A DNA stretch of 13,104 bases from Clostridia bacterium (GTDB lineage: Bacteria > Bacillota > Clostridia > Oscillospirales > Acutalibacteraceae), in the NCBI GenBank assembly GCA_017634155.1, contig JAGBNX010000012.1, positions 1 to 13,104 of the forward strand, given 5' to 3'. Positions 1,406 to 5,933 of this stretch are shown one piece after another; the first letter of the stretch is position 1, and each line of letters starts with the position of its first letter. A program made the translations under genes and the position numbers. The notes beneath the pieces were generated by a model, which was not told the origin of the DNA, made no database searches, and saw only the letters and a program-made list of their open reading frames with translations.

Positions 1406-2396
1406 TTAATTATTAGTATATTCAAACTGCATTAAATCCGGCACATAATATTTTTCAACGATATCGCCGCGTGTGTATTTACCCCATATTTTATTCTGTT
1501 TTTTTAATTTTTTTAAACCGGCTTGTTTTGATAAAACTAAAAATTGATTGTTAGCACAACTATCGGCCCATAAAAAAAATTTTATTTCTTTGTTTTTATC
1601 ATAAACTACAAAACAAGCACACAAATGCGGAATTTTATAACCTGCAGCATCAACATAAAAAAATGTCGGATAGTAATTTCGATCTTTCAGAAAATTAACC
1701 TGACTTTCAACCAGATTATTTTTTTTGAATTTTAAGTCTTCTTCAAAATATAAATTTTCAGGATTTTCTTTTTTCAATTCCTGCTCAAATTCTTGCTTAT
1801 CTCCAAGGCCCCAATCTGACAGATAAATATCAAGAATCTCACAAAGCGTTTCACCGTCAAATGCGTCTGACATCCAAACAAATCCACTGCCTATTTTCTT
1901 GTTTTCAAGACGATCTGGCAACACAGGATGTTCAAAATCAAGTTGCTTTATTCTACAAAAATCATCATTACATTTATCTTTAAAAAAATTATTTATGATT
2001 TCAAGCAATTTATTTATTTTTTTAGATTTAGTATTTTTTTTACGTCTAATATCAGGGCAACTTAAAAACCAATTAAAACCAATATACCAAACAAAATGGA
2101 AATTTATATTCAAAAAAAAGCAAATTGTTACGAATCCAAATTCGGTCAGCGACGCTTAATTTTACTCCGTTTATTATTCGCTCTTTAATTTGAGAACAAT
2201 TTTTACTTGTTAATAAATAATTTAGAAACCAAACGGCAGAGCCTGGTCCAGCAAGTCCTGCTGAACTGCCTAACAAAAATCTTGCTTTGGGATCGTTTAA
2301 AACCTTTTTAATTAAATCACGTGAGATAATACCACTTGATTGCGTTTTTGTATCATCATTTCTTTTACTTTCCTGATGATTGACACTTACATGCAT
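1406..2396 (-). pseudogene. Array paralog 4 (P4), disrupted by a 1-nt frameshift next to the catalytic Cys codon
   Basis: ORF-track pieces 2073-2396 and 1406-2113 are one gene. The upstream frame reads ..GVKLSVADRIWIRNNLLFFEYKFPFC and then LVYWF*. The downstream frame continues ..YIGFNWFLSCPDIRRKK... Removing one T from the coding-strand GTTTGG (2088-2091) gives FPFCWYIGFNWFLSCPDIR. That is colinear with HPFCWHNASWLFLLLPEIR (P1) and YPLCWNNVMFLYLAGPEFR (P3). The C-terminal blocks YYPTF..PHLCACFVVYD..FFLWADS..KYYVPDL match the paralogs. The ATG at 2396 overlaps the P3 stop. Confidence 0.7.
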
Positions 2397-3529
2397 TGAA
2401 GAAACTCTGGTGTATAAAATTCGTCAACAATATCTTGGCTTGAATATTTAACTACAATGGCACCGTATTTTTTTAACTTTTCTAATCCCTCTTGTTTTGA
2501 CAAAACTTTAATACCTCTTCTGCAGCCATTCGCCCATAAAAAAAATTTTATATCATGATTCGTATCATAAACAATATAAGCTCCCATCCAGTGTGGGCAA
2601 GAACTATAATCAACACGATCGTCATATACCGCAACAAATGTCGGGTAATATCCCTGATCTTTTAAAAAATTTATGTCATTATTTCCAAAAAAAGATTCAA
2701 GTGTTGGGTAACCATATTTTTCAGCTCCACCGAAACTAACGACTAAAGTTTTTAACCCTGGCTTTGTTTCTCCTGATGTTGCTGCCGCTGGACTATTATA
2801 TGGAATCCCTCGATCAGCATAATTATGATAATTATTAATTATACTATTAATTATATAATTCCTAGTAGCATTAATATTAGCCTTATTATAACAAACTGCA
2901 TCTGCAACTCCGTACTCCATAAGCGTATAACCATCATAAGAAACGTTAGTTGCGCGACGTGATCCACCCAATCTATCATCGTACCACAAAAAAAATTCTC
3001 CTGATTTTTTCAATGAACCGTTATCATAAGTAAATCGTTGATTAAAATTTATATCTACATTACTTAAAAAACAGTCATTACGATTTGGATCTGAAAAAAT
3101 TTTATTAATATAATTAATTCCACTAATTATCTTACTGTTAATTATTTCCCCATTAATATTTTTCTGAGCAAGTTTTGTATTAAGATACTTTTTAGCTCTA
3201 AATTCGGGGCCTGCTAAATATAAAAACATAACATTATTCCAACAAAGTGGATAAACTTGATTTGGATTAAACATATATTTTCGAATCCACTTTTGATAAG
3301 CAACGCTTAGAGTTACACCATCAACAATACGATCGCCCGTAATTTCTTTGATTTTTTTATTTTCTTGCACTTTATTTAAAATATTTTTAATAACAACTAC
3401 ACCAACCACAGTAACCGCAATACCCAAAGTACTATAAATTAAAGGCTTTGTTACATCTGTTTTATTTTTTTTCTCTAACTGTAAATGTTCGTTCTCCTGT
3501 TGAATATCATAATTATTACTTATTTGCAT
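2387..3529 (-). CDS. Array paralog 3 (P3): membrane-anchored papain-fold cysteine-peptidase-like protein (USP-like Cys/His boxes)
   Basis: 380-aa ORF. It has an N-terminal charged module (..QQENEHLQLEKKNK), a TM helix (LIYSTLGIAVTVVGVVVI), Gln91-x4-Cys96 (NQVYPLCWNNV), a His313 box (PHWMGAYIVYD), FFLWANG, and a C-terminal FYTPEF. The conserved GGAGTTGGTGTTTAATG SD/start context is at 3527-3545. The function is inferred from motifs only. Confidence 0.7.
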   Translation of the reverse strand: MQISNNYDIQQENEHLQLEKKNKTDVTKPLIYSTLGIAVTVVGVVVIKNILNKVQENKKIKEITGDRIVDGVTLSVAYQKWIRKYMFNPNQVYPLCWNNVMFLYLAGPEFRAKKYLNTKLAQKNINGEIINSKIISGINYINKIFSDPNRNDCFLSNVDINFNQRFTYDNGSLKKSGEFFLWYDDRLGGSRRATNVSYDGYTLMEYGVADAVCYNKANINATRNYIINSIINNYHNYADRGIPYNSPAAATSGETKPGLKTLVVSFGGAEKYGYPTLESFFGNNDINFLKDQGYYPTFVAVYDDRVDYSSCPHWMGAYIVYDTNHDIKFFLWANGCRRGIKVLSKQEGLEKLKKYGAIVVKYSSQDIVDEFYTPEFLQCM

Positions 3530-4681: not shown

Positions 4682-5933
4682 TAAACATCAACTCCGGTGT
4701 GTAATATTTTTTAACAATATTGTCTGGGGAATATCTGACAAAAAAACTAGTATTGGTGTCTATGCCAAAGGCTTTATAGCCAATTTTCGACAATAAAGCT
4801 TCATACCCCCTACTGGGGCCAAAAATTTGTAATTTACCTCCGTCATATAAAATATAATTTGCAATATCCCCCTTTGAATCATAAAGCACGAAAAATGTAA
4901 AATAGTGGCCAACATTACACACTGTAATAAACGTCGGCTTAAAGCCAAATTTGTTCGGATACCACAACGCGTGACCAATATTTGTCAATAACATCGGCTT
5001 CGTGTAACCTATTGTAAATCCTTTATATTTGTTAGCAACAAGATCAATTAGATAATCGATATGTTCATATTTTATACCATCATCACTAATGGTAGATCCA
5101 TCTTTAGGATTACCTTGGAGATCACAACCTAAAAGGCGACCCAACCCAAGATTTACAATTCTTTCAGTAAACCGAATACCATTAAATTCTCTTTCAAACG
5201 AATTATAAAGAGAAGTACTGGTAAAAAATAAAAAAAAGTATCCTCTCGGGTTCGGTTCAGTAATTTCATTTTCTGAACCATCTGGCATCTCTCTAGTTTT
5301 TCTATCAACATTTATTTTTACTTTTTTGCTAAAATCATCAAAATAATCATTAATTTTAATTTTATTTTTTCTATAACTATCTATCCAACTATTGCCAATA
5401 TTAATCATATTTTTAATTTTTTTAGGATAATCTCCGCCAAATTCTTTCCTATATTCTTCTTCGCCAAGTCGGATTTCTGGCAAAAGCAAAAATAACCATG
5501 AAGCATTATGCCAACAAAAAGGATGATCTTGGGCCAGCACAACTATATTTTCACAGATCCACCTCTGAAACGCGGGACTCAAAGTCACATCACCTTTTTT
5601 AACCGGCCAGTTATTAAAACCATCAGATCCAACATCATAATCATCTATGTTAACATCATGATCATACCAACCCTTGAATTCATCAATCTGTTTACTTTGC
5701 ATAAAATTATCATCATTCTTAAATTGATTATTTTGCCGTTGATCTGGATTACTGTCGTTATTTTCTTTCAATTTATCCCAAATAACTTTACCGGCAATTC
5801 CCGAAAGCGTGAGGCCTAAAATACTTAAACCAGTATATAACGCCGGCTTTGGAATGCCTGATTTTTGCTTATTTTTTTCTTCTAATTTTAATTCTTTGTT
5901 CTCCTGCCGAATACCATTAATATCTATTGGCAT
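4668..5933 (-). CDS. Array paralog 1 (P1): membrane-anchored papain-fold cysteine-peptidase-like protein (USP-like Cys/His boxes)
   Basis: 421-aa ORF. It has the module MPIDINGIRQENKELKLEEKNKQ, a TM helix (ALYTGLSILGLTLSGIAGKVIW), an N/Q/D-rich linker, Gln135-x4-Cys140 (AQDHPFCWHNASWLF), a His343 box (VGHYFTFFVLYD), YILYDGG, and a C-terminal KYYTPELMFNANK. An SD GGAG lies 10 nt upstream of the ATG. Confidence 0.7.
   Translation of the reverse strand: MPIDINGIRQENKELKLEEKNKQKSGIPKPALYTGLSILGLTLSGIAGKVIWDKLKENNDSNPDQRQNNQFKNDDNFMQSKQIDEFKGWYDHDVNIDDYDVGSDGFNNWPVKKGDVTLSPAFQRWICENIVVLAQDHPFCWHNASWLFLLLPEIRLGEEEYRKEFGGDYPKKIKNMINIGNSWIDSYRKNKIKINDYFDDFSKKVKINVDRKTREMPDGSENEITEPNPRGYFFLFFTSTSLYNSFEREFNGIRFTERIVNLGLGRLLGCDLQGNPKDGSTISDDGIKYEHIDYLIDLVANKYKGFTIGYTKPMLLTNIGHALWYPNKFGFKPTFITVCNVGHYFTFFVLYDSKGDIANYILYDGGKLQIFGPSRGYEALLSKIGYKAFGIDTNTSFFVRYSPDNIVKKYYTPELMFNANK

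Follow-up and report, generated by a model that had tools for sequence, protein, structure and literature searches.

We analysed a window of 13,104 nucleotides (nt), with a G+C content of ∼30%, from the assembly of a Clostridia bacterium (contig JAGBNX010000012.1), in which four consecutive minus-strand genes, P1 to P4, form a tandem array and encode diverging copies of one protein family. An earlier sequence-only reading had proposed that these genes encode membrane-anchored proteins with a papain-fold signature resembling that of the ubiquitin-specific proteases (USPs). The coordinates and strand that it gave for P1, P2 and P3 were borne out by open reading frame (ORF) calls. P4 is, as proposed, a same-strand member of the array at 1406-2396, but it is not a single ORF; it consists of two, 2073-2396 and 1406-2113. 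For comparison we used L006, a syntenic locus of a sister strain that is 97% identical to the window. The genes and their conserved elements are the following:

4668-5933, minus strand: P1, intact paralog of 421 amino acids (aa) (ORF; 100% identical to family member P0001)
5769-5933, minus strand: N-terminal module of P1, a charged 30 aa (+7/-5), then a hydrophobic helix at residues 31-52
5469-5531, minus strand: Cys box of P1, Q135...C140-W-H-N-A...P152-E-I-R155
4836-4937, minus strand: His box of P1, P333-T-F...G-H343-Y...Y351-D352...Y-D364-G-G
3554-4681, minus strand: P2, intact paralog of 375 aa (ORF)
4331-4393, minus strand: Cys box of P2 (C102)
3665-3763, minus strand: His box of P2 (H317, N337)
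2387-3529, minus strand: P3, intact paralog of 380 aa (ORF)
3197-3259, minus strand: Cys box of P3 (C96, C-W-N-N)
2525-2644, minus strand: His box of P3 (H313-W, N334)
1406-2396, minus strand: P4, a broken and probably hybrid paralog (alignment with genes 4 and 5 of L006)

Residues 1-55 of P1 comprise the charged N-terminal module and the helix, and are followed by a long polar linker and, from about residue 110, a catalytic-type domain; P2 and P3 carry counterparts of the module at their 5' ends, on the same strand. The module of P1 is predicted to be a cytoplasmic tail plus membrane anchor.

Alignments of the four proteins confirm the common architecture that had been described: a charged N-terminal module is followed by a single hydrophobic helix and a polar linker, and then come the Cys block and the His/C-terminal block, with an insert between them. 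The N-terminal module (MPI..QENKELKLEEKNK) is present, although weaker in P3 and almost gone in P4, and the Cys block, the PTF...H...YD motif, the [FIL]-L-[WY] motif followed by Asp or Asn, and the KYYTPE tail were all seen. We expressed the significance of each block as the z-score of global alignment scores against 100 shuffles. Between paralogs, the Cys block has z-scores of 5-11 and the His/C-terminal block of 7-21, while the N-terminal module scores 18 for P1-P2, 10 for P2-P3, 7 for P1-P3 and ∼2 for pairs with P4. The insert scores 0.5-1.5, with P3-P4 alone reaching 4.7; thus, that pair excepted, the insert is essentially random-like between copies, and the idea of a fixed frame bearing an unalignable insert holds. 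At the nucleotide level, the N-terminal module is the best-conserved part both between paralogs and between loci.

Judged from sequence searches, the family is small, undescribed and lineage-restricted. An exhaustive hidden Markov model (HMM) search of 1.84 billion cluster representatives returned 48 clusters, ∼27 of them full-length; all 48 fall within this family, and none links it to a named one. Word-indexed searches returned 11 proteins with the full-length profile and 9 with the domain-only profile, but miss P2 and P3 and so were not counted. Scans of the window proteins against PADLOC and PHROGs gave no match and those against Pfam and NCBIfam nothing relevant; 27 family members were also without a match in Pfam, and hmmscan of the four window proteins plus the 27 members found no match to PF00443 at E ≤1. 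A profile sequence search of the PDB returned 0 matches at E ≤10. The sequence-only reading had recognised no named family in these proteins, and these libraries agree with it. Matches to NlpC/P60, CHAP, C39, transglutaminase-like and sortase families were likewise absent from the Pfam and NCBIfam results, as from the top-50 structural lists described below. The residue order of sortases, His...Cys...Arg, does not fit the Cys...His...Asp/Asn order of this family.

The loci of known origin are from ruminant-gut Clostridia. A scan of genome-collection contigs found one locus, in a goat-reticulum ‘Clostridia bacterium’ metagenome-assembled genome (MAG), and one protein cluster is named ‘MAG: Clostridia bacterium’; the remaining loci lie on metagenome contigs from ENA and Logan, and the contig of one relative encodes Spo0A. 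Copies are nearly always in tandem, usually in arrays of 2-5 (three at L001, two each at L002-L005, five at L006, at least four at L009 and one at L010). Flanking genes vary among loci, and no conserved partner gene was found; PADLOC and PHROGs gave no support for a defence-system or prophage context of the window.

To see which residues define the family, we counted conservation across 31 members. The Cys is present in all 31, as is an aromatic residue, mostly Trp, at Cys+1; Asn or Asp occupies Cys+3 in 30/31 and Gln occupies Cys+7 in 25/31, a pattern that echoes the USP Cys box C-[YF]-x-N-x-x-x-Q. The His is found in 29 of the 31, and all 31 have Asp or Asn at His+20/21. This last position, which follows [IF]-L-[WY] and had been a secondary feature of the sequence-only reading, is now the conserved candidate for the third residue. 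Thus, from the proposed set of conserved Gln, Cys, His and Asp, the Cys, the His and this later Asp/Asn stand, but the Gln at Cys-5 and the ‘Y-D’ Asp do not. The former is Gln in P1-P3 and Tyr in P4/gene 5, and in the family it is Gln in 17/31, Trp in 8/31 and other residues in 6/31, so that it is not a family-conserved catalytic residue. The latter is Asp, Asn or Gly across family members, and in P1 it differs between the two strains (D352N, codon at 4878-4880). Being variable, strain-dependent and at the far end of the strand that bears the His itself, it was rejected as the third catalytic residue.

An aromatic residue after the catalytic His, termed the ‘gatekeeper’, is enriched in deubiquitinases and in proteases that cleave ubiquitin-like proteins (Ubls) after Gly-Gly, relative to other cysteine proteases, and discriminates imperfectly (Hermanns et al. 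2020, PMC7391069). In this family, His+1 is aromatic (Tyr, Trp or Phe) in 25/31 members, as in the deubiquitinase-type or Gly-Gly-directed cysteine peptidases; the pair is H-Y in P1 and P2, H-W in P3 and H-L in P4/gene 5.

Structures were predicted with AlphaFold2 (AF2) and the family multiple sequence alignment (MSA) for two proteins: P1, and P0016 (gene 5 of L006), which is 25% identical to P1 and is essentially the intact form of the window's P4. The P1 model has a predicted local distance difference test (pLDDT) score of 75 and a predicted template modelling (pTM) score of 0.74, and the P0016 model scores of 77 and 0.75; the core blocks of both reach a pLDDT of 85-97. In the P1 model, helix 140-149 starts at C140, strand 343-351 starts at H343 and strand 357-364 finishes at D364. 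Similarly, in the P0016 model, C92 starts helix 92-101, H247 directly precedes strand 248-255 and D268 ends strand 261-268. Both models have a thumb-like part composed of the Cys helix and further helices, a palm-like C-terminal sheet and a variable insert between the two. The order Cys-His-Asp/Asn, the Cys at a helix N-terminus, and the His and Asp/Asn on adjacent strands, all seen in both models (n = 2), are those of clan CA peptidases.

Indeed, when each model was compared with the PDB using Foldseek, the top-50 lists consisted almost exclusively of clan CA enzymes, led by USPs. The P1 model matched USP7, the Pan2 pseudo-USP, USP54, CYLD, USP46/35/28/11/1, ZUP1, UfSP2, MCF and PaTox, the lowest E being 0.03 and the highest probability 0.93. 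For the P0016 model, the best match was Pan2 (E 1.2e-3, probability 0.99), and the list also held USP1/12/15/11/30/28/7/18, Ubp8, IdeS/Mac-1 and GtgE. A search of BFVD folds gave nothing significant, only faint matches to herpesvirus tegument deubiquitinases. The structure comparison thus produced clan CA-dominated matches, but neither it nor the profile searches gave significance; the papain-like, USP-like fold is the best structural reading of the AF2 and Foldseek results while significant USP homology was not obtained.

We also aligned the family profile with USP7 using hhalign, against the single USP7 sequence, against a USP7-family profile of 20 sequences (the catalytic-domain sequence, confirmed against the PDB, plus USP7-family homologs), and with N- and C-terminal sub-alignments. 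Against the USP7-family profile, E values were 0.37-0.5, and the P values of the best local alignments were ∼0.4-0.5. In the best alignment, which is non-significant, the GHY of the family falls on the GHY of USP7 and the D/N-G (DG) on the USP7 DDD; the N-terminal part (P ∼0.5) places C140, Q135, N143 and Q147 on USP7 C223, N218, N226 and Q230. The C-terminal sub-alignment alone landed on a non-equivalent region. Thus, both boxes appear to be in USP register, but homology to USPs is statistically not demonstrated.

All window proteins carry a single, moderately hydrophobic helix around residues 30-52, and across the family the N-terminal flank of this helix is typically +7/-3, with a weak charge asymmetry in P2 and P3. 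Six distant members have an extra N-terminal hydrophobic segment and a loop of +11 to +15 before the anchor, while P0017 and P0032 have plain Sec-type signal peptides. Membrane helices are oriented by the positive-inside rule. By this rule, the flank charges, the basic loops and the Sec signal peptides would place the catalytic-type domain outside the membrane; the surface location that had been suggested is plausible from the charge distribution and the signal peptides of distant members.

The comparison with L006 shows that the array is changing between close strains. L006 has five intact paralogs, of 421, 375, 380, 352 and 318 aa. The 5' part of P4 matches L006 gene 4 and the remainder matches L006 gene 5, and the window is short of ∼775 nt at this point (L006 8948-10949 versus window 1406-2396). 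Two features mark the break:

2200-2225, minus strand: approximate crossover from gene-4-like to gene-5-like sequence in P4, in a helix-coding stretch common to both (TAAATTATTTATTAACAA)
2089-2091, minus strand: extra T in P4 (ttttgTTTgg versus ttttgTTgg in L006)

The extra T puts P4 out of frame within the Cys box, and dropping it restores ...FPFCWYIGFNWFLSCPDIR, identical to the reading of L006 gene 5. From these alignments, P4 is more likely a hybrid, frameshifted copy that arose by recombination between copies 4 and 5 than an assembly artefact or collapse combined with a sequencing error, because at the junction genes 4 and 5 are identical over no more than ∼19 nt. With five intact paralogs in L006 and a loss of ∼775 nt in the window strain, the copy number of the array is, on this comparison, different between close strains.

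The amino acid differences between the strains concentrate in the N-terminal tail, the helix, the linker and the insert; none are in the Cys or His boxes. Between the window and L006, the ratio of non-synonymous to synonymous substitution rates (dN/dS) is 0.50 for P2, 0.65 for P3, 0.56 for P4/gene 5 and 1.20 for P1, the last from just 12 substitutions, but is 0.06 for FeoB, 0.23 for the methionyl-tRNA synthetase (MetRS) and 0.04 for the NTPase at 216-1253, which are housekeeping-type neighbours. The rapid divergence that had been read from the window is therefore seen as values of 0.5-1.2 for the array versus 0.04-0.23 for these neighbours. Because of these values, the clustering of the differences and the fusion of genes 4 and 5, relaxed or diversifying selection with turnover by recombination describes the array, as far as sequence comparison goes.

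The reading of P1-P3 to which we lean, with modest confidence and on the basis of predicted structures and motifs, is that they are extracytoplasmic, membrane-anchored cysteine peptidases or isopeptidases with a papain fold and a USP-like topology, in which the insert takes the place of the fingers; the catalysis, the topology and the peptidase or isopeptidase chemistry are what we infer. P1-P3, and P4 before it was broken, would be single-pass membrane proteins with a short charged cytoplasmic N-terminal tail and one transmembrane helix; the variable polar linker may cross the cell wall and carry an extracytoplasmic domain with a papain-like (clan CA) fold that is nearest to the USP thumb/palm arrangement. 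In this domain, the invariant Cys at the helix N-terminus would act as nucleophile and the His that opens a β-strand as general base, while the Asp/Asn at His+20/21, which closes the neighbouring strand, would orient the His. The mostly aromatic residue at His+1 would limit the P2 position of the substrate to small residues, like that of deubiquitinases and other Gly-Gly-cleaving peptidases. The insert, 120-180 aa between the thumb-like helices and the palm-like sheet, at the place of the USP ‘fingers’, differs between all paralogs and is the likely module for substrate recognition. The genes would multiply by tandem duplication, as repeat units with a common Shine-Dalgarno and start context, and copies would be lost or reshuffled by inter-paralog recombination under relaxed or diversifying selection.

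Several results weigh against this reading. Sequence and profile comparisons (Pfam, NCBIfam, PDB, hhalign) gave the family no significant connection with any family of peptidases, and the comparison of its profile with the 20-sequence USP7-family profile gave E 0.37 and a probability of 0.2%. No Foldseek match to the PDB reached E ≤1e-3, and the USP and Pan2 alignments span only 70-150 columns with a template modelling (TM) score of ∼0.2; because the aligned length is so short, the matches probably cover mainly the palm-like sheet of the models. The MSA behind the models is shallow (27-31 sequences), with the inserts poorly modelled, the topology rests on charge rules only, and P1 owes its dN/dS to few substitutions. 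In clan CA, a Gln or Asn 5-6 residues before the Cys forms the oxyanion hole, but here that position is Gln in 17/31. Finally, P0035 and P0036, from other metagenomes, have Asp in place of the His while keeping the Cys and the Asp/Asn; on sequence they are candidates for pseudo-enzymes or for an altered catalytic centre.

The closest known systems are the USPs (MEROPS C19, PF00443, including the yeast Pan2 pseudo-USP). They have in common with this family, to judge from its motifs and AF2 models, the order Cys...His...Asp/Asn, the Cys at a helix N-terminus followed by aromatic-x-N/D-x-x-x-Q, a His box of G-H-Y type with an aromatic ‘gatekeeper’, and helical thumb-like and sheet palm-like parts. 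The Cys-His spacing of the family, ∼155-265 aa, is within the USP range, and the His is 20-21 residues from the Asp/Asn, compared to 17 in USP7. The family differs from USPs in the residue aligned with the oxyanion Asn, which is Gln in only 17/31, and in having a hypervariable insert in place of zinc-ribbon fingers. It also differs in its N-terminal membrane anchor and predicted extracytoplasmic location, and in being bacterial, arranged in tandem arrays and confined to a few MAGs of gut Clostridia.

TssM of Burkholderia, a ‘fingerless’ USP-type deubiquitinase, was reported in 2023 to be the sole USP of bacteria (PMC10719079). Both TssM and this family are bacterial, have a compact USP-like core (predicted in the family) without canonical fingers and have an aromatic residue after the His; TssM has been proposed to reside at the bacterial surface (PMC10719079). 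However, TssM, with its triad C308/H442/D457 (spacings of 134 and 15 residues), is recognisably a USP by sequence, whereas the family has no detectable sequence relation to USPs. Moreover, TssM is a single-copy, type II-secreted effector of an intracellular Gram-negative pathogen with an Ig-like N-terminal domain, while the family is transmembrane-anchored, multi-copy and found in commensal-type Firmicutes. IdeS/Mac-1 (C66), GtgE, the cysteine-protease domains of MCF and PaTox, ZUP1 and UfSP2 also have the clan CA core and the Cys-His-Asp/Asn triad, and IdeS, from a Gram-positive bacterium, works outside the cell on a narrow range of substrates, but these proteins have Foldseek probabilities of 0.2-0.5, below those of USPs, and no sequence similarity to the family, and they have neither its architecture of N-terminal module, transmembrane helix and linker nor its tandem hypervariable arrays.

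Transglutaminases, NAT, NlpC/P60-LRAT and Cif/CNF deamidases rely on the same triad and core, and it is conceivable, if unlikely, that these proteins combine a papain-like fold with other chemistry, as surface transglutaminases, acyl- or N-acetyltransferases, deamidases or cell-wall amidases that would remodel, for example, peptidoglycan or surface proteins instead of acting as USP-type (iso)peptidases. An extracytoplasmic site would suit cell-envelope substrates better than ubiquitin, and the oxyanion Gln is unconserved, but neither Foldseek top-50 list contains a transglutaminase, NlpC/P60, CHAP or NAT structure, with USPs and peptidases dominating both; none of the 27 members has a Pfam match to such families, and the aromatic residue after the His is typical of Gly-Gly-directed peptidases. 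We consider it rather unlikely that the proteins are not enzymes at all but variable surface proteins (adhesins, phage-receptor decoys or agents of antigenic variation), in which the Cys, His and Asp would be structural or metal-binding and the USP-like matches, led by the pseudo-enzyme Pan2, would reflect a generic α+β sheet. In such proteins, we would expect what is seen in the weak E-values, in the absence of the His from two members and in tandem, recombining, fast-evolving arrays with conserved 5' ends, which resemble variable surface-protein loci. However, the Cys and Asp/Asn are invariant and the His near-invariant among sequences 20-25% identical, at the secondary-structure positions of the clan CA triad, and strain-level substitutions spare both boxes; to bind a metal, further conserved ligands would be required, and the alignment shows none.

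It is quite unlikely that the proteins act against a eukaryote (rumen ciliates, fungi or the animal) as true USP-type deubiquitinases or Ubl-deconjugases, whose display on the surface would strip ubiquitin from cell or host targets, as has been proposed for intracellular pathogens. Ubiquitin is not normally extracellular, homology to USPs is non-significant, and the conserved USP Glu that binds ubiquitin Arg72 was not located; the loci seen bear no sign of a secretion system or an intracellular lifestyle, and the gene content of the relatives (Spo0A, FeoAB, queuosine and Dap pathway genes) resembles that of free-living gut anaerobes. In favour of this idea are the USPs as top structural matches, the USP-like registers of the Cys and His boxes with the gatekeeper aromatic, an AT-rich genome with some gene decay, and the precedent of TssM, a ‘fingerless’ bacterial USP that may be surface-localised (PMC10719079). 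A bolder form of it, which we regard as improbable, would make the family a second and independent bacterial lineage, after TssM, of surface USP-type deubiquitinases or Ubl-isopeptidases, encoded in fast-evolving arrays of a Gram-positive rumen bacterium; every paralog would have its insert adapted to another ubiquitin, Ubl or chain type, and the enzymes would remove ubiquitin-like tags during an intracellular or predation-resistant life with rumen ciliates or fungi. Least probable of all, and very much so, is that the domain faces the cytoplasm, as a membrane-tethered peptidase that processes, for example, a bacterial Ubl or a Gly-Gly leader substrate. The C39-type Gly-Gly leader peptidases are papain-like and membrane-associated, and the charge asymmetry of P2 and P3 is weak, but the Sec signal peptides or highly basic pre-anchor loops of distant members argue for a domain outside, and no Ubl, E1/E2, ABC-transporter or bacteriocin gene adjoins any array.

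If the outward-facing cysteine peptidase reading is correct, the array represents an undescribed family of the papain/USP superfamily, membrane-anchored, equipped with a hypervariable insert for substrate recognition and carried in recombining tandem arrays of uncultured ruminant-gut Clostridia. USP-type enzymes are almost unheard of in bacteria, TssM having been reported as the only one (PMC10719079). Another lineage, associated with commensals, would inform both the question of how USPs arose and that of the role of Gly-Gly-type isopeptidases outside the eukaryotic cytoplasm. The family is a defined candidate for cysteine peptidase activity at the cell surface in the rumen, and a compact natural example of a fixed (predicted) catalytic scaffold that bears diversified specificity modules. 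Even with an inactive Cys/His centre, it would be an array of variable surface proteins that changes through duplication, recombination between paralogs and frameshifts.

The signals for expression of the array are compact. The 5' end of P2 overlaps the 3' end of P1 by 14 nt, and P3 and P4 also overlap by a few bases; the four genes are probably co-transcribed as one array, as read from this layout. An identical 14-mer, GGAGTTGRTGTTTA, precedes the ATG of P1 (5934-5947), P2 (4682-4695) and P3 (3530-3543) on the minus strand and, by its sequence, is a Shine-Dalgarno sequence plus spacer common to the repeat units. The copy of P2 doubles as the P1 tail codons ...PELMF(N). Because of this double use, conservation of the KYYTPELMFN tail may come in part from a second function, in providing the ribosome-binding site and start for the following copy or in marking a boundary of the duplication unit. 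The promoter and terminator scan of the window gave no signal above shuffled expectation, and the Rfam and tRNA scans of the window were empty. A hairpin 3' of P4 was missed by the consensus terminator scan because its T run begins 4 nt past the stem. These signals and the genes upstream of the array are:

5934-5947, minus strand: GGAGTTGGTGTTTA, directly 5' of the P1 ATG (sequence reading)
1354-1403, minus strand: putative intrinsic terminator 3' of P4 (11-bp stem at 1371-1403, T tract at 1354-1366)
6011-7657, minus strand: metG, upstream of the array
7730-8560, minus strand: membrane protein of 276 aa (signal-like segment at the N-terminus, then another hydrophobic helix)
8740-10991, minus strand: feoA-feoB, upstream of the array

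The 276-aa membrane protein, for which the library scan found no family match, is the fastest-evolving gene of the window relative to the sister strain (dN/dS 1.59); its differences, 26.5 non-synonymous and 4.5 synonymous, are concentrated at residues 97-183. Besides the intact feoAB, the window contains a scrambled remnant of a second feoB (12708-13028, minus strand), in which pieces corresponding to FeoB residues 20-33 and 136-156 lie side by side with 86% identity; as sequence, this remnant is a sign of gene decay or rearrangement. The gene convergent to the array, on the plus strand at 216-1253, encodes a P-loop NTPase that falls in the uncharacterised PRK06851 group (NCBIfam E 9e-50, well short of the equivalog cut-off) and is under strong purifying selection to judge from its dN/dS. 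At two other loci, in otherwise different genomic contexts, a small zinc-ribbon protein is encoded directly upstream of the array (L001 6154-6675, 173 aa; L002 9451-9900, 149 aa), and the array of L002 is followed by a DUF7674 gene and by three tandem genes for GT2-ricin-B-lectin glycosyltransferases.

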